From Bacteroidia bacterium (GTDB lineage: Bacteria > Bacteroidota > Bacteroidia > NS11-12g > UBA955), in NCBI GenBank assembly GCA_965655465.1, contig CBFHGY010000004.1, positions 996 to 54,403 on the forward strand: a stretch of 53,408 nt of DNA. The letters are read 5' to 3'. Numbering within the stretch: position 1 is the stretch's first letter; the number at the start of each line of letters is the position of its first letter. Under the pieces are notes generated by a model. It did no database searches, was not told where the DNA came from, and saw only the letters and a program-made list of their open reading frames with translations. The translations under genes were made by a program, and so were the position numbers. Positions 5,842-14,317 of this stretch are shown piece after piece.

Positions 5842-6792
5842 TTAGAAATAACGTGGGGTGATTACACGACGGTTTGCTACATAAGGGATGGCATATTGAA
5901 TACCAAATTCATGAGAACCGTTTACATAGTTGTTAATTGGGGCCAATCTATGGTCGTAAGAATAAACCAATGTAAAATTAGGGGTTACTTGGGCCATTGC
6001 CATAATACCTGCTTCACCCCCTGAGCGGTAAAAAGCTCCAATTGAATAGTCATCCAAATAGATGGCATGCACGTTTAAATCCACTTGAATTGGCGCACCG
6101 GTTGCGATTTTTATTTGGGTAGTGGGTTTGATTTTTAGATCGCTGTTTACCTCATGAACATATCCCGCGAAAGCATAATATTGCGTACTGGTAGCATAGC
6201 TGATATCTACATTGTTAACCGGATTATCACCTACAAACACCATACGCGGTGCTGAAACTCCTGCAAAGAATTTTTCGGAATAGAGATAAACCCCAAAACC
6301 TGCCATTGGAGCTAAAATATTCAAATCGTTATTACGAAAAGCAACGTCTACATCCACGTCTCTATTTAACTGAGACAAGTTTATATTATAATTGAACAAA
6401 CCACCCCGAAGACCTACTGCCAAGCGAAGATCTTTGGTAATTTGTTTATTCCAGGCTAAGGAGAGTGCGATTTGCGTTTCACGCATGGGGCTTGCCGTTT
6501 GAAACTTACCTAAACTCCCTGTTTGAAGATTCAAACCTCCCCCGAAATCTCCTACTATAGGGCTATGCACACCTAAATTGTAGTATCTAGGCGCTCCGGG
6601 CAAGTTCAACCATTGCATGCGCGCCAAACTATTGGCAACTAAAGTTTGCTTAGAACCCGCATACGCTGGATTTAGTGCCAAGGCATTATAGTCGTAATGC
6701 GAATACATTTGCTCTTGTTGCGCGTGCACTTCTGACGTAGCAGTAATGCCCGCGATGGCAAACAAAAGGCTGTATATTTTAAAATTTTTCAT
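5842..6792 (-). CDS. Type IX secretion system membrane protein, PorP/SprF family
   Basis: AQQEQMYSHYDYNALALNPAYAG...ARMQWLNLPGAP...YSYD...GSHEFGIQY...ITPRYF. Start placed at MKNFKIY (6792), just after the stop of the upstream gene. Confidence 0.92.
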   Translation of the reverse strand: MKNFKIYSLLFAIAGITATSEVHAQQEQMYSHYDYNALALNPAYAGSKQTLVANSLARMQWLNLPGAPRYYNLGVHSPIVGDFGGGLNLQTGSLGKFQTASPMRETQIALSLAWNKQITKDLRLAVGLRGGLFNYNINLSQLNRDVDVDVAFRNNDLNILAPMAGFGVYLYSEKFFAGVSAPRMVFVGDNPVNNVDISYATSTQYYAFAGYVHEVNSDLKIKPTTQIKIATGAPIQVDLNVHAIYLDDYSIGAFYRSGGEAGIMAMAQVTPNFTLVYSYDHRLAPINNYVNGSHEFGIQYAIPYVANRRVITPRYF

Positions 6793-6811
6793 ACTTCTTT
6801 TTAATTTGAAA

Positions 6812-9800
6812 TTAACGCTTAATGTAAATGTTACCTGTAATATCTTCACGGTTCTGGCCGTTTGGTTTAAATACATAGTAATACAAGCCTTCTGTTAAGT
6901 CACTTCCCAAGCCAGGCATACTCGACTTGTTACTTCCATCCCAGTTGTTTTTGTATCCGTTTCCAGAATCAAAAATCACTTGACCATTACGGTTAAAAAC
7001 AATCAACTGGGCTTTGGTATACACTTTCAATCCTTGAATAACCAAGAATTCATTTACGCCATCACCGTTAGGCGAGAATGCTTCTGGAATTCGGAATTGA
7101 GCATCCTTATAATCAGGGATTCCATTTCCATCAGAATCGCCTTGACCTTCATCTGCATCTAGAACATCGTCGTTATCTGAATCGGTATCTCTGAAATCAG
7201 CAATACCATCTCCATCGGTATCTAATGGATTCGTACCATCGGAACCTGCCTCGATTGCATCTAAAATGCCATCTCCATCAGAATCTAGATCGCGGAAATC
7301 TTCTGTTCCATCGTTATCAGTATCTACTGGGTTATTAGGATCTGCACCCGCTTCAATTGTATCTGGAATGCTATCGCCGTCTGAATCTAAATCTCGGAAA
7401 TCGTCTTTTCCGTCGCCATCTGTATCCACTGGATTGGTAGGATCTGTGCCTGCTTCTACTTCATCAGGAATGGTATCCCCATCTGAATCTAGATCGCGGA
7501 AATCCTCTTTACCGTCGCCATCCGTATCTACCGGATTGGCAGGATCAGTGCCAGCTTCATACGTATCTGAGATGCCATCATCATCAGAATCGGTATCCCT
7601 GAAATCTTCATTTCCATCATTATCTGTATCAACAGGATTTGTTGGATCTGAACCTGCTTCATACGTATCTGAAATTCCATCATCATCAGAATCGGTATCT
7701 CTGTAATCTGCCTTACCGTCATTGTCCGAATCGGTTGAACCCTCTACAGAATCGGGTATTTGATCGTTGTCTGAATCTGTTTCACGGAAATCCATATTGG
7801 TGTCCGCATCTGAATCTGCAGGTTTTAAATCTCCATTATCTCCAAAACCACTGGTTGCACCATCTGCCTCGTCCATGATGCCATCAGAATCCGCATCGGT
7901 TACATCGTCTAAGATTCCATCTGCATTGGCATCTGTATGACCTTGCAAACTCTCTAACAGGTCGAATAGACCATCTTCGTCGGAGTCAAGATCTAAGTAA
8001 TCTGGAATACCGTCGTTATCGGTATCAACAGCAGCTGTTAAAACGGCAGTTAAATCGTCGTTTATACCATCCCCGTCTGCATCGGTTGAACCGTTTTCAA
8101 TGACATCATTTATGCCGTCGTTATCCGAATCGAGATCACGGAAATCTGAAATTCCATCGCCATCCGAATCCAACAGAGCGTGTTTTCCGTTATTTTCTGT
8201 TTTATCGGCTAAACCGTCATTATCCGAATCTGTATCGAGATAATCTAAAGTGCCATCGGCATCAGTATCGAAGTTTTTCTCAATATAATCTGGAATACTA
8301 TCGTTATCTGAATCCAATAGATCAACATAAATAAACTGTGTTTTTGTGGTGATATTCCCTTGTTTGTCTCTCACACTCACGGTGATTATCGGCATTCCCA
8401 CATCACCTACATAGAAGGTATCCTGACTTACCCATGTTGAATCCACATTGCAGTTATCGGTTGCGGAAACAATAATATCATTTAGGTCTAAAACGGCTGT
8501 ACCTGAAGTGTCGATTCCAATATTTGTGCTTTTGGTTACTAATATTGGTTTAATGGTATCGATTACATTCACATTGAAAGTAGTTTCAGATACATTATCA
8601 AACTTGTCGGTTACTCGGAAAGTAATCTGTTTTACAGGGCCGTCTGAACAGATAAGGGTATCGCCTATTATTTCTCTCTTTTTGATGCCACAATTATCAT
8701 AAGTACCCCCGTCAATATCATCTGGGGTGATGGTATCACGACCGGTTGTACTGAGATAGAAATCTGGTAACGTTGGTTTTATTACAATTACGGGCTTAAC
8801 GGTATCCAAAACAGTAACGAGCGTGCTGTCCTTTGAAATATAGCCACTACCGTCTTTTCCGATTAAGAATACTTTAAACTCCTTAGTTACATCGTCGCAG
8901 TCAAAACTTGTTTTTCCATTAAGATAAACATCCAAAGGTATACAAGAGGTATTATCGGTACTTCCTAAGTCAATATCAGCAGTTCCAATCGTTTTTATTG
9001 GATTTACTGCAGGTCCTAAATAAACCGTATCGCGCACTTTTGCGATCATAATTGGGGCTAAGGTATCTCGTACATGGACTTCAATAGAATCTATTGTTTT
9101 ATTCTTTGAGGCATCCATAAACGTTATATATACCATGATACTGTCCGTAGAAATATCTGCACAGCTAAACGTTTGTTGGGAGTAAATTGTATCCGTTATT
9201 TCGCAATTATCAAATGCTGAAATCAAGTAATCCGAATCGTGTAATGTATAGGTACCATCTGGACCTAAATAGACAACAATCGAATCTTTAACCACCACAT
9301 CAAATGGTGCCAATGTATCCAACAAGGTTACAAGGGCCGTATCATGAGTAACATTACCGCTGGCGTCTTCTACAAAAACCAAAACTTCAAATACACCAGT
9401 ATCTCCGCATGTGAAGAAGGTATCAGACGTATAAATTTTTGTTATACCACAATTGTCATTGCCTGAATTATAAAGTAAAGCGGGTAAAATCGTATCGCGA
9501 CCATTAGAATCGAGGTATCGGGTAATGTTATTAACTATTGGGGTATCGGGGGCAAGGGTATCTAGTACTTGAATTTCAATGTTTTTGGATACGAAATTTC
9601 CTGAGGCATCCTTAACCGTTACTGTATAGGTTGCTGAACCTAAATCTGCGCAGGTAAATACGGTTTGCATGGTGGTATCTACAACTCCACAATTATCGTA
9701 GGTATATTTAACGATTTCTTTTTTGGGAAGTAATGCTTGTCCGCTTGCGTCTAAGTACAAAATAGTATCGGTTCGAATTTTTAAAGAATCAGGAGCTCGG

Positions 9801-11410
9801 CTATCGATAATATTAAAGGTAACTTCTTTGTAACGCTTGTTGCCGTTTTTATCTTCGGCATAAACCCCTATGGTTTTAGATCCTTTATCACCACAAGTAA
9901 AGAACAGGGTATCGGATGTCGCAGAAGCAAAATAGAAGGTATCTACTCCACAAGCGTCGTATGTAGAAAGTACCACGTCATCTATGATTAGGGTATCTAC
10001 TCCCAGAGAATCCAAAACTCGGGTTGGTACGGTTTTAAGTTTAAGATCGGGGGCGAAAGTATCGTGTACGGCTATTTTTGCCGTTACTGTTCTAGAGTTG
10101 CCACTAAAGTCTTCAATCCTATAGGCAACATCAATGGTGTCACCATCATGAGTACAAGAAAAAGCCACTTGACCTAGATAGGTTTTTGATGCATCAATTC
10201 CACATGCGTCAAACGATGCACTATCAACCATGGAGCTGGTTAATGTTCCTGAGCCGAAACTGTCTAAATACAAATCTACTACTGCATAAATCAAGTTCGC
10301 GGGAGCAGTTGTGTCTTTTACGGTTATAACAGGGGTTTCAGTGCTATCGGTATTCCCTGTAGGATCGATAGCGTGAAACTTTACCGAATGGGTATTTGCA
10401 ATATCCGCACAATTAAAGGTACTGTCACTGATTGCATACTTAATAGGTGCACAATCATCGGTTGTACCATCGTTCAAATCCGCTGCATGAACAGTAACCG
10501 TTCCTGTTGCGGAGTCTAAAAATACGGTAAGGTCTTTGGCTATGGCGATTGGTGGATCAACGTCGGTGTGTTGGATTGAAAAAACTACAGTATCCGGGCA
10601 GGCGTTAATATCCTGAACGTAGGCTGTATCATTTGAAATATCCAATAATCCGCTGTAATTGTTTGTTGAAGAATAATTGCCACCTATTGATTTAACCCAA
10701 TATTTTTTACTTCCTGTGCCACCTGTAGCAGAGAAAGTAACAGAACCCTGTCCATTGCAAATAGAGTTAGTAACTGATGCACTTAATATAACTTGATCTG
10801 GTTCTATAACCGTAACCGTTGATTTAAACTTACACCCATCCTTGTCTGTAACGGTAAAGATATGATCTCCTCCAACAGCATTGGCATAAATTGAATCAGC
10901 AAGCGTTGGGTTTGTATCCCAAGAAAAATTGTAGGGATAAGTAGTCCCTGTAACTAACATTACTATCAAACTTGTTAGTGAATCTTTACACTTATTATTC
11001 AAATTTGAAGCATTCCCATCATATATTACAGAAACCGCAGCCGGCTGGTTTATTATAATACCCGATAATGTTGTATCAATGGTTGGTATGGAAACGTGTT
11101 TTTTTACATTCACACTATAATTGTTAGCCGCCGCCACATTATTAAATGTGTGCGAGCCTGTCGTTGCTGATACAGTGGTAGTAAACGTTTGAATAATTTG
11201 GTTTGCCGAATCCAACTCAATGGTAAAGGTCGTGCTAACCGAATGGCTAAAACTCACCGAAATACTTCCCGTGGCGGTGCCATAACAATCAGCAGGAGTA
11301 GTTCCAGTAATCGACGCCGTTGGCTGGGCTATCGATTGTTGCGCTCCAAAGAGCAGAAGCAGCAGCAACAAACTGCTCGCTTTTTCACGTATTAATTTTC
11401 TCATATTCAT
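6812..11410 (-). CDS. Large T9SS type B (gliding-motility C-terminal domain) surface adhesin with SprB-like, HYR-like and TSP3 repeats
   Basis: Signal peptide, SprB-like modules (ADCYGTATGSI, VTDKDGC), ~85-aa Cys-containing DTxAP repeats and Asp-rich repeats. C-terminal IPEAFSPNGDGVNE...FNRNG...WDG...GLYYY...GNIYIKR. Confidence 0.9.
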   Translation of the reverse strand: MNMRKLIREKASSLLLLLLLFGAQQSIAQPTASITGTTPADCYGTATGSISVSFSHSVSTTFTIELDSANQIIQTFTTTVSATTGSHTFNNVAAANNYSVNVKKHVSIPTIDTTLSGIIINQPAAVSVIYDGNASNLNNKCKDSLTSLIVMLVTGTTYPYNFSWDTNPTLADSIYANAVGGDHIFTVTDKDGCKFKSTVTVIEPDQVILSASVTNSICNGQGSVTFSATGGTGSKKYWVKSIGGNYSSTNNYSGLLDISNDTAYVQDINACPDTVVFSIQHTDVDPPIAIAKDLTVFLDSATGTVTVHAADLNDGTTDDCAPIKYAISDSTFNCADIANTHSVKFHAIDPTGNTDSTETPVITVKDTTAPANLIYAVVDLYLDSFGSGTLTSSMVDSASFDACGIDASKTYLGQVAFSCTHDGDTIDVAYRIEDFSGNSRTVTAKIAVHDTFAPDLKLKTVPTRVLDSLGVDTLIIDDVVLSTYDACGVDTFYFASATSDTLFFTCGDKGSKTIGVYAEDKNGNKRYKEVTFNIIDSRAPDSLKIRTDTILYLDASGQALLPKKEIVKYTYDNCGVVDTTMQTVFTCADLGSATYTVTVKDASGNFVSKNIEIQVLDTLAPDTPIVNNITRYLDSNGRDTILPALLYNSGNDNCGITKIYTSDTFFTCGDTGVFEVLVFVEDASGNVTHDTALVTLLDTLAPFDVVVKDSIVVYLGPDGTYTLHDSDYLISAFDNCEITDTIYSQQTFSCADISTDSIMVYITFMDASKNKTIDSIEVHVRDTLAPIMIAKVRDTVYLGPAVNPIKTIGTADIDLGSTDNTSCIPLDVYLNGKTSFDCDDVTKEFKVFLIGKDGSGYISKDSTLVTVLDTVKPVIVIKPTLPDFYLSTTGRDTITPDDIDGGTYDNCGIKKREIIGDTLICSDGPVKQITFRVTDKFDNVSETTFNVNVIDTIKPILVTKSTNIGIDTSGTAVLDLNDIIVSATDNCNVDSTWVSQDTFYVGDVGMPIITVSVRDKQGNITTKTQFIYVDLLDSDNDSIPDYIEKNFDTDADGTLDYLDTDSDNDGLADKTENNGKHALLDSDGDGISDFRDLDSDNDGINDVIENGSTDADGDGINDDLTAVLTAAVDTDNDGIPDYLDLDSDEDGLFDLLESLQGHTDANADGILDDVTDADSDGIMDEADGATSGFGDNGDLKPADSDADTNMDFRETDSDNDQIPDSVEGSTDSDNDGKADYRDTDSDDDGISDTYEAGSDPTNPVDTDNDGNEDFRDTDSDDDGISDTYEAGTDPANPVDTDGDGKEDFRDLDSDGDTIPDEVEAGTDPTNPVDTDGDGKDDFRDLDSDGDSIPDTIEAGADPNNPVDTDNDGTEDFRDLDSDGDGILDAIEAGSDGTNPLDTDGDGIADFRDTDSDNDDVLDADEGQGDSDGNGIPDYKDAQFRIPEAFSPNGDGVNEFLVIQGLKVYTKAQLIVFNRNGQVIFDSGNGYKNNWDGSNKSSMPGLGSDLTEGLYYYVFKPNGQNREDITGNIYIKR
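7223..7732 (-). repeat. Five tandem 34-aa (102-bp) Asp-rich repeats within a longer TSP3-like tract (~7100-8320)
   Basis: DTDGDGKEDFRDLDSDGDTIPDEVEAGTDPTNPV-type units; the repeat is also visible at DNA level. Confidence 0.85.
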
Positions 11411-11832: not shown

Positions 11833-13290
11833 TTACGTCAGTATAAAGACTGCCCATAACCATGCAATCGCTAAAACTAAAAACAAACTTATTAAATTTA
11901 CCGCGTCGTTGGTAACTCCAGCAACGCCTCTAACACGGTCTGCTGCTACTCCTATGTCGCTAAGATTTCCCTGGCGTTCAAATTTTTCCTGCACCGAATC
12001 GCCCAGCAAACTATCAATTAGACTTCCCAAGAGACCCGAAAGCGCAATAAAACCGGTTGTTTCCCATTGTATTTCATAATGCACATAGGAGTATGCCGCC
12101 ATAATTAAACCACCCAAGAATGCTCCTAAAAGTCCAAACCCCGTAACGCCTCCCGAAAGTCCAATAGGAACCTGTTTCCACGTTAAAATACTTCTTGGAT
12201 TATTGCCCCAGCGGATACCTAATTCACTGCTCAGTGTATCGCCCAGAGCCGCGGCCATAACCACAAATACAAAAAAGTTCATGTCGCTAGGACCCATAAT
12301 ATGTGCGTTCAATCCCCATACATTTAATAATGCCAATATTCCTATAATACCGCCGTTGGCGGCCACTTGCCAGCGATCGCGGGCTTTGCCCTGTTTGTGG
12401 TCGGATTTTTGAGTTGTATTTAATTTTGAGGCTACGCTTCCCAAAACAAAAAAGATCACAAGTGGAATAATGTCTATCCCCGCCAATAAAACCAAAATAG
12501 CCAATAAAATCGCCGCGAAAAGACCATCCATCGACAGCCATTTTTTCCAAACCACCCAAATGGCAATGCACATAATGGGCAGAATAAAGGCGCTACCAGC
12601 CCATATTAAAAAGGATAATTGTTTAAGCTTTATTAAAATAAAAAAGCACCATAAAGGTACGCTGATATTATCGGCCCCATTCCCGCTTAAAAGTTCGACC
12701 ATTGCCGTGCTAAGAGCCAGAATAAACAAGGTAAGCAATGAATTAAACAAAGATGCACCGTCGTTTTTTAAATGCAATTGATTCCAGAAAACCACCATTA
12801 AAAAGGTCCATGCCGTTAATACAAATACCCCATAACCAATCCAAGTTTTACCGTTAATGGTTTGATTCGAATAACCCCAAAATGTTTTCAATCGTATGAA
12901 TCGACCCGCAATAGCCGACAATCCATCGGATACCGCGAGTATGCCAAAAGATATCGCGATATTGTGCTTCTGCTCAGGAAAACATAGCAACAAAAGCCAC
13001 AATACCCAAGGAAAATAAGCAATGCCCCAACTTTTACGACCGTCGATTTGAAAAAATCCACCTAAAACTGCAAGCGTTAATAAGGTTGCCGCACTAAAAA
13101 TCAGCCACACGAAGAGGGTCAAAAAAGATTCTTCCGTTATATAAGTAGCATGCGCAACAGCTCCAATGGCACCAATATGTAATAATTTACGAGCAAAAAA
13201 TCGGGTATTTTCAAAGGCACGATCTAACCAAGTTGATAGCAACACCAGTATAATTATGCCAATTATATGAAGGGTATATGGAAAATCCAT
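11833..13290 (-). CDS. Phytol/dolichol kinase-like (VTE5-type, CTP-dependent) domain fused to a DUF92 (VTE6/COG1836-type) domain
   Basis: N-half: RKLLHI, KSWGIAYFP, AVSDGLSAIAGR, GKTWIG, ELLSGNGADNISVPL. C-half: FFVLGSVASK, RDRWQVAANGG, AALGDTLSSELG, VPIGLSGGVT, GSLIDSLLG, NDAVNL. Confidence 0.85.
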   Translation of the reverse strand: MDFPYTLHIIGIIILVLLSTWLDRAFENTRFFARKLLHIGAIGAVAHATYITEESFLTLFVWLIFSAATLLTLAVLGGFFQIDGRKSWGIAYFPWVLWLLLLCFPEQKHNIAISFGILAVSDGLSAIAGRFIRLKTFWGYSNQTINGKTWIGYGVFVLTAWTFLMVVFWNQLHLKNDGASLFNSLLTLFILALSTAMVELLSGNGADNISVPLWCFFILIKLKQLSFLIWAGSAFILPIMCIAIWVVWKKWLSMDGLFAAILLAILVLLAGIDIIPLVIFFVLGSVASKLNTTQKSDHKQGKARDRWQVAANGGIIGILALLNVWGLNAHIMGPSDMNFFVFVVMAAALGDTLSSELGIRWGNNPRSILTWKQVPIGLSGGVTGFGLLGAFLGGLIMAAYSYVHYEIQWETTGFIALSGLLGSLIDSLLGDSVQEKFERQGNLSDIGVAADRVRGVAGVTNDAVNLISLFLVLAIAWLWAVFILT

Positions 13291-13333
13291 TCAAGCAAAG
13301 TTGCGTATATTCACCGAAATTTATGGATACCCT

Positions 13334-14317
13334 ATGAAAAAGCTGCTTGTTTTTTGGCGTTTTACCCGGCCGCATACCATTATTGGCAGCAGCATTAGTA
13401 TATTTTGTTTGTTTGCATTTTCGGCACTCACCCTAAAATCCATGGGGGCTCAAACCGCTGTGAATGGCGTAACTTCCTATGCATTCACCATTAGCGATAT
13501 TTATTTATTTGCAAGCACCTTAATCGCCGCACTCGCTTGCAACGTATTCATCACGGGTTTAAACCAAATAACGGATGTCGAAATTGATCGCATCAACAAG
13601 CCACATTTGCCCTTGGCTTCGGGGGAAATTTCCTCTGCAGAAGCTAAAAAATGGGTGGTTTTGGCTTTGGTAACGGCGTTGTCCGTTTCCTTTTATCTTT
13701 CCAATTTCTTTGGTGTATTAATCTCCTTTATTTGCTTTTTAGGTTGGTCGTATTCAGCGCCTCCAATTCGCTTTAAACGCTACCATATTTGGGCTGCTTC
13801 TGCGATTGCCTTAGTGCGGGGACCCTTAGTGAATGTTGGAATTGCGCTTCATTTTCTCACGAAAATCGCTCACAATACGTATTTCTCCGATTTGGGAGTG
13901 GCTGACACTTTACTAATACCGCCGCGCTACTTCGCTGTTGGCGTTTGGATGATTCCTTTAACATTATTCATAAGTGCCTTCAGTTTGGGAATCGCTTGGT
14001 TTAAGGATTTGCCAGATACAACAGGCGATTCCCAACACGAAGTTGGAACTTTGGCCGTTAAAAAAGGACGTTCATGGGCCTTTGCCTTAGGAGTTGCTAT
14101 TGTTAGTTTGGCCTATATGTTTTTGATTTTTTGGGGAATTTATTTTCACTGGGGAATCCCTTACGTGTTCTACCATATCTTAGCATTAACCGTTTTTGCT
14201 ATTTGGGTCTATCGCACCGATCTAAAAGACACCCCGTCATTAAAGCGTTTTTATAAACTTTACTGGATCTTGTTTTTCTTGGAGTATTTTTCATTCTTCC
14301 TGCTCCTCTTTCGGTAG
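13334..14317 (+). CDS. Homogentisate phytyltransferase-like (HPT/VTE2 clade) UbiA-family prenyltransferase
   Basis: FWRFTRPHTIIGS, NVFITGLNQITDVEIDRINKPHLPLASGE, YSAPPIRFKR, IALVRG, FKDLPDTTGD and FYKLYWILFFLEY resemble cyanobacterial/plant HPT motifs. Start placed at MKKLLVF (13334). Confidence 0.85.
   Translation: MKKLLVFWRFTRPHTIIGSSISIFCLFAFSALTLKSMGAQTAVNGVTSYAFTISDIYLFASTLIAALACNVFITGLNQITDVEIDRINKPHLPLASGEISSAEAKKWVVLALVTALSVSFYLSNFFGVLISFICFLGWSYSAPPIRFKRYHIWAASAIALVRGPLVNVGIALHFLTKIAHNTYFSDLGVADTLLIPPRYFAVGVWMIPLTLFISAFSLGIAWFKDLPDTTGDSQHEVGTLAVKKGRSWAFALGVAIVSLAYMFLIFWGIYFHWGIPYVFYHILALTVFAIWVYRTDLKDTPSLKRFYKLYWILFFLEYFSFFLLLFR

Follow-up and report, generated by a model that had tools for sequence, protein, structure and literature searches.

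The window, a stretch of 53,408 nucleotides from a Bacteroidia bacterium (contig CBFHGY010000004.1), contained a divergent gene pair that we interpret, with moderate confidence and from its sequence, as a prenylquinol module: a prenol would be salvaged to its diphosphate, which would then be used for the prenylation of homogentisate to a methyl-prenyl-benzoquinol. One gene encoded a protein of the homogentisate prenyltransferase family (HPT/VTE2), the other a fusion protein with a C-terminal DUF92 domain. The linkage of the two genes was conserved in relatives and HppD was present in the source genome.

Layout and conservation of the locus

The two genes had been described as lying head-to-head with 43 bp between their ATG codons. 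Both open reading frames were present and the spacing was verified, with the start codons read from the sequence as CAT at 13288-13290 and ATG at 13334 (Table 1). The longest frame of the UbiA gene reached back to a TTG at 13301. ATG 13334 is nevertheless the likely start, since all 23 aligned homologues share the first methionine of this form. One sequencing run contained the full window and may be its source sample; two other runs shared only 0.05 of its words. No RNA datasets were found among the sequencing runs matching the window.

Table 1. Coordinates of the gene pair, its domains and its spacer within the window
Feature	Position	Strand	Description
485-aa polytopic membrane protein gene	11833..13290	-	Open reading frame; putative prenol-kinase-like N-domain and C-terminal DUF92
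N-domain, aa 1-235	12586..13290	-	CdsA-superfamily, dolichol/phytol-kinase-like; proposed CTP-dependent prenol kinase
DUF92 domain, aa 240-471	11878..12573	-	PF01940 match; plant VTE6 phytyl-phosphate kinase family
Divergent intergenic spacer, 43 bp	13291..13333	.	Between both start codons (sequence)
327-aa UbiA-superfamily homogentisate prenyltransferase gene (HPT/VTE2 family)	13334..14317	+	NF009525, PF01040

Scanning 185,579 species genomes gave 156 stretches that code for a relative. The 80 loci that were kept all came from metagenome-assembled genomes, nearly all labelled Bacteroidota. The fusion of N-domain and DUF92 lay divergently upstream of the UbiA gene in 52 of the 80, so chance does not account for the head-to-head arrangement, and the gene pair is conserved in relatives. 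The other 28 loci comprised two in which the N-part was cut by a contig end, seven with DUF92 alone, 15 with neither part although 1500 nt or more were available upstream, and four that were not judgeable. The spacing between the longest frames of the pair in relatives was mostly 11–120 bp. In seven of the 15 fusion-less loci a geranylgeranyl reductase gene was located upstream of the HPT gene, directly adjacent in five and one gene away in two. A methyltransferase-like gene (~248 aa) occurred in 19 loci, in most of them between the fusion and the HPT gene. The gene carB was also a conserved neighbour (34 loci).

DUF92 exceeded the cut-off in 249 of the 401 genomes of a phylum sample, mostly in frames of ~500–550 aa; HPT did so in only four. 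The fusion occurred in chlorophototrophs, including with three (bacterio)chlorophyll synthases, as well as in non-phototrophs. Because it is widespread in the phylum without HPT, the fusion is no peculiarity of this module, and what it does is not bound to HPT. The two genes could accordingly be neighbours through inherited synteny only, the fusion carrying out general polyprenol recycling rather than feeding the prenyltransferase. Its frequency in HPT-less genomes fits such a view, as does the conservation of carB, which shows how well gene order as such is kept in this lineage. However, the divergent pairing persisted over deep branches of the HPT tree while other neighbours changed, and where it was lost, another enzyme supplying phytyl diphosphate lay at or next to the HPT gene (7/15 loci). 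VTE5 and VTE6 are also described as suppliers of VTE2 in plants (PMC9782597). We consider mere synteny quite improbable and favour a functional pairing.

The homogentisate prenyltransferase family protein

The sequence-only reading had assigned the UbiA protein to the homogentisate prenyltransferases, and by its sequence it is a member of that family. It scored 251.6 bits against NCBIfam NF009525 (homogentisate phytyltransferase equivalog; cut-off 226), with a match spanning residues 2–324 and profile positions 12–306 of 310, while the next-best NCBIfam family was ChlG (71.8 bits). Pfam PF01040 was matched with an E of 8e-33. All 23 aligned homologues matched NF009525 (E≤1e-66), and homologues were named homogentisate phytyltransferase by NCBI and JGI, the JGI label being 'homogentisate phytyltransferase/homogentisate geranylgeranyltransferase'. 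Across the 23 sequences the first UbiA motif block (N77-Q78-x-x-D81-x-x-x-D85..N88-K89-P90) was invariant, as was the second (K224-D225-x-P227-D228-x-x-G231), with D232 in at least 90%. These blocks correspond to NQxxDxxxD...NKPxLP and KDxPDxxGD, the two Asp-rich Mg/diphosphate motifs of the HPT family. In Synechocystis, the HPT/VTE2 is Slr1736.

A tree was built from 83 HPT-like proteins and 11 other UbiA paralogues from the phylum. The HPT-like proteins all fell into a single clade that excluded the paralogues (SH-aLRT 99). HPTs from genomes bearing a tocopherol cyclase nested within the same clade as the protein of the window. Identities as chlorophyll synthase, DGGGPS, MenA or EboC were rejected, with scores of at most 71.8 bits against cut-offs of at least 212.

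The enzyme shares with the HPT/VTE2 of cyanobacteria and plants the curated family and the two Asp-rich motif blocks, and homogentisate is available to it through HppD, but its host has neither a chlorophyll synthase nor a tocopherol cyclase. EboC and UbiA-297 of marine Flavobacteria are likewise UbiA-superfamily aromatic prenyltransferases in Bacteroidota, but of a different family; the EboC model gave the protein 26.3 bits against a cut-off of 250. A survey of Flavobacteria genomes reports having found no homogentisate prenyltransferases in them (PMC9235831).

An enzyme of HPT descent might nonetheless use a different aromatic acceptor and form another prenylated metabolite. Its NF009525 score is only modestly above the cut-off of 226 and lies below those in other Bacteroidota (386 in G128, 313 in G351, 308 in G039), and Flavobacteria UbiA enzymes can take unexpected acceptors, such as quinolines in the case of UbiA-297 (PMC9235831). 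Yet the equivalog model was passed across nearly its full length, both motif blocks were invariant, HppD was present and the proteins of cyclase-bearing genomes nested in the same clade. We attach a low probability to another acceptor and retain homogentisate as the preferred one.

The two halves of the fusion protein

The C-terminal half of the fusion protein is, judged by its sequence, certainly DUF92. Pfam PF01940 matched residues 240–471 with 180.2 bits (E 6e-53, cut-off 27.5), covering profile positions 4–249 of 251. TIGR00297 gave the protein 82.2 bits, below its cut-off of 205.85. The source genome contained no second DUF92, and of 14 control genomes none but those of one cyanobacterium and three archaea had the domain. 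Fifty full-length homologues of the 485-aa protein aligned end to end. Its AlphaFold2 model had a pLDDT of 89.6 and a pTM of 0.89; Foldseek searches of the PDB returned no row at E≤0.001 either with the whole model or with the model of the N-domain.

On the N-half alone, Pfam gave no match at E≤10 save a meaningless DUF2518 row (E 6.4). A PDB sequence-profile search with the N-domain alignment returned only a chance match to Notch (E 0.94), and tblastn of the domain against 72,556 plasmids matched nothing. Against 1.84 billion representatives the N-domain profile had 7198 matches at E≤1e-3, the best 150 of which were nearly all fusions of ~460–500 aa, and a search for shorter homologues led to three fragments only. 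Cluster names for the homologues were few; names given by JGI included 'dolichol kinase'.

Invariant or near-invariant residues of the N-domain were R34, K35, H38, D122, G129, K148, G152, E199, G205, D207 and N208. K35 and E199 were invariant in both alignments (50 fusion homologues; 48-sequence N-domain set), whereas R34 and H38 were invariant in the 50 fusion homologues and present in at least 90% of the 48-sequence set; T149 directly followed the invariant K148. For the prenol kinase PfPolK, a 'charged clamp' of Arg29-Lys30-His33 together with Thr144 and Glu179 is described in PMC10849223. R34-K35-x-x-H38, T149 and E199 parallel these residues, with equal spacing in the clamp. The clamp, Thr and Glu are shared with PfPolK and FOLK (CTP-dependent farnesol/geranylgeraniol kinases) within a multi-helix membrane domain of ~230 aa, a likeness based on the published PfPolK residue positions, but the domain is fused to DUF92 here.

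More distant relationships led to the CdsA superfamily. In hhalign, the N-domain matched standalone proteins of 206–237 aa, which PF01148 hits weakly, at 98.8% (E 5.7e-17), and CdsA at 51% (E 1.5e-4); the controls reached 0.2% and 1.4%. The N-domain profile matched standalone PF01148-like proteins with E values of 4e-19 to 5e-11, and PF01148 (CTP_transf_1) gave 22.1 bits on the N-part of one fusion homologue, below the cut-off of 24. CdsA 4q2e_A ranked third of 48,161 chains against the N-domain model (Z 7.6, rmsd 5.6, 167 aligned, model 10–227) and was the only listed structural row covering the whole domain, yet the fold matches of the domain were middling (Z 7.2–7.6) and tied with unrelated helical proteins. 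The DUF92 domain matched CdsA in hhalign at 90.9% (E 1.1e-6), and structurally it matched 5guf_A, a CDP-archaeol synthase, over model residues 332–483 (Z 7.9, rmsd 3.7, 117 aligned). An hhalign block paired SDGxxAxxGR..KTxxG of the fusion with DTxAYfxG..KTWEG of CdsA. The N-half is distantly similar in profile and perhaps in fold to CdsA (PF01148; 4q2e), the DUF92 half in profile to CdsA and in fold to CarS (5guf), but both score far below family level and are, from their sequences, most likely kinases rather than cytidylyltransferases. That the N-half is the cell's CdsA was ruled out by a distinct, bona fide CdsA elsewhere in the genome (contig C12, 207 bits).

The original description as a fusion of a VTE5-like kinase with DUF92 was supported, with the DUF92 half certain. 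The N-half is putatively a CdsA-superfamily, prenol-kinase-like domain, as the clamp and hhalign results suggest, but a Pfam family could not be assigned to it. In comparison with the phytol kinase VTE5 and the phytyl-phosphate kinase VTE6 of plants and cyanobacteria, the C-half is DUF92 and the N-half is prenol-kinase-like, and together they adjoin and plausibly feed an HPT, but here a single polypeptide would combine both steps and the N-half is too diverged for Pfam. According to PMC9782597, the function of VTE6 was first proposed from a comparison with bacterial COG1836 genes.

Genome content and the proposed pathway

The source genome was 88.98% complete in 257 contigs, and absences from it are soft because the assembly is only ~89% complete. 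The supply of homogentisate that had been presumed for the cell was found: HppD (TIGR01263) was encoded on contig C90 (positions 6608-7672; 441.9 bits, cut-off 277). HppD occurred in 89 of the 101 genomes of the class; its presence tells no more than that the cell has homogentisate at its disposal and does not speak specifically for the module. No chlorophyll synthase was found in the genome, whereas a rhodopsin was encoded. In place of the earlier label 'likely heterotroph', the cell is better worded as rhodopsin-bearing and chlorophyll-less.

The 485-aa protein would be a bifunctional kinase, probably CTP-dependent. The substrate of its N-domain may be a free C20 prenol, with phytol set free from algal chlorophyll as the most plausible candidate and geranylgeraniol as the next; the DUF92 domain would phosphorylate the resulting monophosphate once more, to the prenyl diphosphate. 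The HPT-family enzyme would join the latter to homogentisate derived from tyrosine via HppD, with 2-methyl-6-phytyl(prenyl)-1,4-benzoquinol as the predicted product. We infer from the sequences the kinase activities, the identity of the prenol (including any specificity for phytol), the acceptor and the physiological role.

Vitamin E-like antioxidants had been suggested as one possible product. No match to the tocopherol cyclase family (VTE1; PF14249) was found in the source genome, 89% complete, nor in 35 of the 37 genomes carrying the same pair, nor in G039, whose closed 4.4-Mb genome has a locus of the same type. Tocopherol is an unlikely product since the cyclase is missing from the genome and from these 35 relatives, and this part of the sequence-only reading was not sustained. 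A complete chromanol pathway could still exist if the cyclase and methyltransferases had been lost in assembly gaps or were non-homologous. The incompleteness of the fragmented genome leaves room for this, and Tocopherol_cycl exceeded its cut-off in 12 of the 401 phylum genomes, together with an above-cut-off HPT in G128 and G351 and together with the pair in G428 and G436, the two exceptions among the 37. However, the absence of PF14249 from G039 and from nearly all pair-bearing genomes makes assembly gaps an unlikely cause, and tblastn searches of the source genome with the methyltransferase-like, geranylgeranyl reductase and desaturase neighbours of relatives gave nothing at E≤1e-4. A complete pathway in this organism appears very doubtful. 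Instead, the pathway most likely ends at a membrane quinol/quinone, given that the genome and nearly all relatives are without the cyclase, and the product may be methylated in some relatives. In a sunlit, rhodopsin-bearing cell such a quinol/quinone could serve as a lipid antioxidant.

The same enzymes could also work with a donor not derived from phytol. The fusion would then recycle geranylgeraniol, farnesol or another prenol, and the product would be a geranylgeranyl- or other prenyl-benzoquinol, as with HGGT- or HST-like enzymes. The JGI homologue names include homogentisate geranylgeranyltransferase, the fusion is also found in lineages without HPT or chlorophyll synthases, which suggests general prenol salvage, and the related PfPolK uses farnesol and geranylgeraniol (PMC10849223). 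In addition, no geranylgeranyl reductase over the cut-off was detected in the source genome. This last result can be read both ways: bacteria can make GGPP themselves, and a dedicated salvage kinase best fits a prenol that the cell, showing no reductase, would be unable to make. Moreover, seven of the 15 loci without the kinase have a geranylgeranyl reductase beside the HPT gene or one gene away, which speaks for a reduced chain of the phytyl type. We regard a donor other than phytol as rather unlikely and phytol as the preferred substrate.

The gene families of the module are already known, its genes are named automatically by databases and the fusion is widespread in the phylum. A literature search that excluded supplements found no paper on this module in heterotrophic Bacteroidota or non-photosynthetic bacteria, and tocochromanols are made solely by photosynthetic organisms according to statements in reviews (PMC5745509). 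Here, the enzyme family of the committed step of the tocopherol pathway adjoins putative phytol-salvage kinases in a bacterium without chlorophyll synthase. The occurrence of either the kinase fusion or a geranylgeranyl reductase beside the same prenyltransferase also backs the roles of VTE5 and VTE6 independently, from the side of genomics. More tentatively, we propose that planktonic Bacteroidia with a rhodopsin but no chlorophyll, a large group of which most members are uncultured, might take up phytol from decaying algal chlorophyll, activate it with a fused VTE5-VTE6-type kinase and join it to homogentisate derived from tyrosine, giving a phytyl-benzoquinol as a vitamin-E-type antioxidant outside the oxygenic phototrophs; G128, G351, G428 and G436, with their cyclase-family gene, may make true tocochromanols. 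If true, heterotrophic plankton would turn algal phytol into a quinol with an antioxidant or redox role, and engineers could reach MPBQ-type compounds by a short route of two genes together with hppD. It would also define a lipid class new to bacteria and give phytol an additional sink in the aquatic carbon cycle.

A homogentisate phytyltransferase-family gene facing a DUF92 fusion

The window contained two divergent genes, one encoding a UbiA-family prenyltransferase and the other a fusion protein, consisting of an N-terminal domain proposed to be a prenol kinase (N-domain) and a C-terminal DUF92 domain. Their positions and head-to-head arrangement in the sequence-only reading agreed with the ORFs and the sequence: 43 bp lay between the start codons, an ATG on the reverse strand (up to 13290) and one on the forward strand at 13334. 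The longest UbiA frame opened upstream, at TTG 13301. ATG 13334 was taken as the start because all 23 aligned homologues kept Met1 of this form. Elsewhere in the window, a repeat-rich surface protein with many Asp-rich DxDxDG-type repeats was encoded beside a product that clustered with a PorP/SprF protein (type IX secretion) from a related locus. The two genes were kept upstream of the module in 13–19 loci.

The 327-aa prenyltransferase matched Pfam UbiA (8e-33) and the NCBIfam equivalog NF009525, 'homogentisate phytyltransferase' (HPT; 251.6 bits, cut-off 226; profile positions 12–306 of 310). The second-best family was ChlG (71.8 bits, cut-off 313), and assignment as ChlG, BchG, DGGGPS, MenA or EboC was rejected, each score being far under its own cut-off. 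NF009525 was matched by 23/23 homologues at E≤1e-66. In their alignment, two Asp-rich blocks were invariant, N77-Q78-x-x-D81-x-x-x-D85..N88-K89-P90 and K224-D225-x-P227-D228-x-x-G231 (with D232 in ≥90%), which we take to be typical of homogentisate prenyltransferases. A quick maximum-likelihood tree (IQ-TREE, LG+G4) was built from 83 HPT-like proteins (the window protein, 79 of 80 scan loci and the three further genomes with an HPT in the phylum sample; fragment L103, with <250 residues remaining, was left out). This tree of scan and phylum-sample sequences, with 11 of the 30 UbiA paralogues detected in the same phylum as outgroup, placed the HPT-like proteins in a single clade (SH-aLRT 99). 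This clade included the HPTs of two genomes with a tocopherol-cyclase-family gene. The nearest partners of the window protein were four MAG proteins, L036–L039 (SH-aLRT 99). The profile match assigned the prenyltransferase to the HPT family, and the tree set it apart from the 11 other paralogues.

Features of the window, of the genome carrying it (G000) and of related genomes (G) and loci (L)
Feature	Location	Strand	Size, match or basis
Fusion ORF	window 11833-13290	-	485 aa; ORF calling
DUF92 domain	window 11878-12573	-	PF01940
UbiA-family ORF	window 13334-14317	+	327 aa; ORF calling, start at ATG 13334
Surface protein	window 6812-11410	-	1532 aa
PorP/SprF-like protein	window 5842-6876	-	
HppD	G000, short contig		441.9 bits, cut-off 277
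Homogentisate dioxygenase	G000		weak match, 48.4 bits
Tocopherol cyclase family	G000 (88.98% complete)		no match
Geranylgeranyl reductase family	G000		none over cut-off; best 57.4 of 158.8
(Bacterio)chlorophyll synthase	G000		none over cut-off
Microbial rhodopsin	G000:C8:4798-5454, outside window		152.5 bits
Tocopherol cyclase family	G128:C1:3534795-3535361; G351:C6:97886-98449; G428:C65:39686-40261; G436:C55:8402-8893		PF14249
Best HPT match of phylum sample	G128:C1:1663998-1664897		386 bits
Geranylgeranyl reductase (example)	L093:6748-7923	-	~391 aa; GGR_cat + FAD_binding_3
Methyltransferase-like gene (examples)	L077:7258-8004; L035:10803-11540	+; -	~248 aa
Alpha/beta hydrolase	L102:6950-7780; L074:1102-1935; L104:9300-10151	+; +; +	
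AhpC/TSA-thioredoxin-domain protein	L111:6486-7988; L082:1985-3379	+; +	464-501 aa
Fatty-acid-desaturase-family protein (example)	L087:8888-9763	-	

The two halves of the fusion protein

Residues 240–471 belonged to DUF92 by sequence (E 6e-53), the family of the plant phytyl-phosphate kinase VTE6. The DUF92 gene was single in G000, and of 14 control genomes only four had the family, one cyanobacterium and three archaea.

The N-domain was less easily placed. Residues 1–235 matched nothing in Pfam at a threshold as lax as E≤10, and nothing in a PDB profile search. PF01148 (CTP_transf_1) matched the N-part of one fusion homologue (549 aa) under its cut-off (22.1 bits, E 1.1e-4; cut-off 24) and, weakly, four standalone proteins of 206–237 aa as called. 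The N-domain profile matched the same four standalone proteins (E 4e-19 to 5e-11) and, weakly, canonical CdsA (best 5e-5). With hhalign, the N-domain scored 98.8% against these four (E 5.7e-17) and 51% against 22 CdsA sequences (E 1.5e-4), compared with 0.2% and 1.4% for the UbiA and DUF92-half controls; its SDGxxAxxGR..KTxxG segment lined up with the CdsA block DTxAYfxG..KTWEG. The DUF92 half itself aligned with CdsA (90.9%, E 1.1e-6).

AlphaFold2 models were confident for the whole fusion (pLDDT 89.6, pTM 0.89) and the N-domain alone (pLDDT 90.2, pTM 0.88). Foldseek found nothing with either model. In an all-against-representatives structural search, CdsA (4q2e_A; Z 7.6, rmsd 5.6, 167 aligned) ranked third of 48,161 for the N-domain and was, among the matches listed, the only one covering it entirely, while CDP-archaeol synthase (5guf_A; Z 7.9, rmsd 3.7, 117 aligned) matched the predicted DUF92 half; Z values of 7.6 and 7.9 lie where helical proteins can match by chance, so these fold matches are consistent but not decisive. 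The distant kinship of DUF92 with CdsA and the resemblance to 5guf_A place both halves in one CTP-using superfamily, and we conclude that both are CdsA-superfamily membrane modules.

Twelve residues (R34, K35, H38, G89, D122, G129, K148, G152, E199, G205, D207 and N208) were invariant in 50 full-length homologues. For PfPolK, a prenol kinase of malaria related to VTE5/FOLK, published work names Arg29, Lys30 and His33 as a 'charged clamp' in the CTP pocket, together with Thr144 and Glu179 (PMC10849223); R34-K35-x-x-H38, T149 and E199 of the N-domain agreed with these in order and spacing. Leads pointing the same way were the Atlas clusters 'diacylglycerol/polyprenol kinase family' and 'Phytol kinase family' (0.91) and the JGI label 'dolichol kinase' on two homologues. 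From this converging, indirect evidence we conclude that the N-half is a prenol-kinase-like domain. 'VTE5-like::DUF92 fusion', as the protein was first named, is therefore a fair description, the N-half being at most a putative member of the VTE5 family itself.

Conservation of the pair and supply of the prenyl diphosphate

In a scan of one genome per species (185,579 species), 156 stretches encoded relatives of the UbiA protein. The best 80 loci of these were all from metagenome-assembled genomes, labelled Bacteroidia, Flavobacteriales, Saprospiraceae, Chitinophagaceae/Chitinophagales or Bacteroidota, except that some third-party assemblies carried a genus label that is evidently mistaken. 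Upstream genes were classified with profiles from our own alignments. The complete fusion stood upstream on the opposite strand in 52/80 loci, so the pair is conserved in relatives; the N-part only, cut by a contig end, was found in two, DUF92 alone in seven, and neither in 15 with at least 1500 nt upstream. Four could not be judged.

It might be argued that fusion and prenyltransferase have no functional link. In the phylum sample, 249/401 genomes had DUF92 over the cut-off, most often in a frame of about 500–550 aa, and 10 of 11 such frames fetched (about 500–570 aa, e.g. L135–L145) also contained the N-domain (E 1e-20 to 1e-51); HPT was over the cut-off in only 4/401 (G000, G039, G128 and G351). 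The fusion is therefore an old, common architecture of the phylum with a role beyond HPT. Among five fusion-type genomes tested, three had at least three (bacterio)chlorophyll synthases over the cut-off and are therefore chlorophototrophs; two had none. What is distinctive of the window's lineage is the divergent pairing with the HPT gene. The best HPT match of the phylum sample, in G128, was reported with two TAA codons inside the matched stretch, which was nonetheless covered by a 294-aa open frame in the fetched locus.

In plants, phytyl diphosphate is made either by reducing GGPP or by phosphorylating free phytol. In seven of the 15 kinase-less loci (L074, L090, L093, L094, L102, L104 and L113), a geranylgeranyl reductase gene lay just upstream of the UbiA gene, as an alternative phytyl diphosphate supply. 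It adjoined the UbiA gene in five loci; in the other two, one alpha/beta-hydrolase gene stood between them. That the same prenyltransferase is accompanied by one or the other, kinase fusion or reductase, is the best comparative evidence for a phytyl-type diphosphate as its substrate. It also speaks against the less likely alternative of a prenol of another type.

Other neighbours varied. A gene for a ~248-aa protein with a DLCSGxGGP-type motif accompanied the pair in 19 loci, mostly between fusion and UbiA gene on the UbiA strand. Its only database likeness, a weak one, was to SAM methyltransferases (Pfam E about 0.007–0.009, 3 and 2 of 17 members; six PDB matches, all methyltransferases, E 0.16–0.24). 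It may methylate the prenylquinol; tblastn found no match in G000. Downstream, carB adjacency in 34 loci looks like plain synteny. Near the HPT gene were also an alpha/beta hydrolase (three loci), a protein with a C-terminal AhpC/TSA-thioredoxin domain (two loci, directly upstream) and a fatty-acid-desaturase-family protein (five loci); any role of theirs in releasing phytol or in redox chemistry is speculative.

A probably truncated pathway and its possible role

The homogentisate source sought in the full genome (2.56 Mb, 257 contigs) was found, as HppD. HppD was over the cut-off in 29/37 pair-bearing genomes, and also in 89/101 genomes of the class (a tally that takes in G518, flagged unpublished and used for no other claim), so its presence is not specific; an acceptor other than homogentisate is the alternative here, set against the HPT family assignment. 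Six of the 37 (G417, G431, G420, G428, G424 and G416) had two or more HppD genes, G420 having three, of which one might serve specifically in making the quinol.

A full tocopherol route, one of the outcomes initially envisaged, is unlikely: the cyclase family had no match in G000 and occurred in only 2/37 pair-bearing genomes. A complete pathway could be hidden in the missing part of the assembly, a reading that the rarity of the family among pair-bearing genomes does not favour. Across the phylum, PF14249 was found in 12/401 genomes, including the HPT-bearing G128 and G351. It occurred together with HPT in at least four genomes (G128, G351, G428 and G436), whose gene content makes them candidate producers of true tocochromanols beyond the oxygenic phototrophs.

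We hypothesize that the N-domain would phosphorylate free phytol (or another C20 prenol), DUF92 would convert the monophosphate to the diphosphate, and the HPT-family enzyme would join this to homogentisate with decarboxylation, giving 2-methyl-6-phytyl-1,4-benzoquinol. As a whole, this scheme seems to us slightly better than an even bet: the HPT and DUF92 family assignments, the gene linkage and the HppD gene are observed, while the catalytic activities, the prenol, the acceptor and the role are our inference. Without a cyclase, the product would remain a quinol/quinone. The organism is probably a rhodopsin photoheterotroph; the sole sequencing run containing the whole stretch, labelled marine plankton metagenome, is possibly its source sample, and no RNA runs containing it were listed.

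All three protein families have been described before, and genes of this kind are already named by annotation pipelines: homologues are labelled 'homogentisate phytyltransferase' by NCBI on Bacteroidetes/Bacteroidia MAGs and 'homogentisate phytyltransferase/geranylgeranyltransferase' by JGI. The PlantSEED paper reportedly noted clustering or fusion of VTE5/VTE6-type genes. According to one article, the bacterial VTE5/VTE6 connection served in the discovery of VTE6, whose function was first proposed by comparison with bacterial COG1836 genes (PMC9782597, on Seaver 2014). A survey of cultured marine Flavobacteria detected no homogentisate prenyltransferases in its genomes (PMC9235831), and according to a review abstract only photosynthetic organisms make tocochromanols (PMC5745509). 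Our literature search found no paper on HPT or this module in heterotrophic Bacteroidota. What appears to be new is a truncated vitamin-E-type front end, putatively salvage-fed, in chlorophyll-less bacteria, whose quinol/quinone might serve as an antioxidant in the membrane of a cell that bears rhodopsin and is exposed to light.
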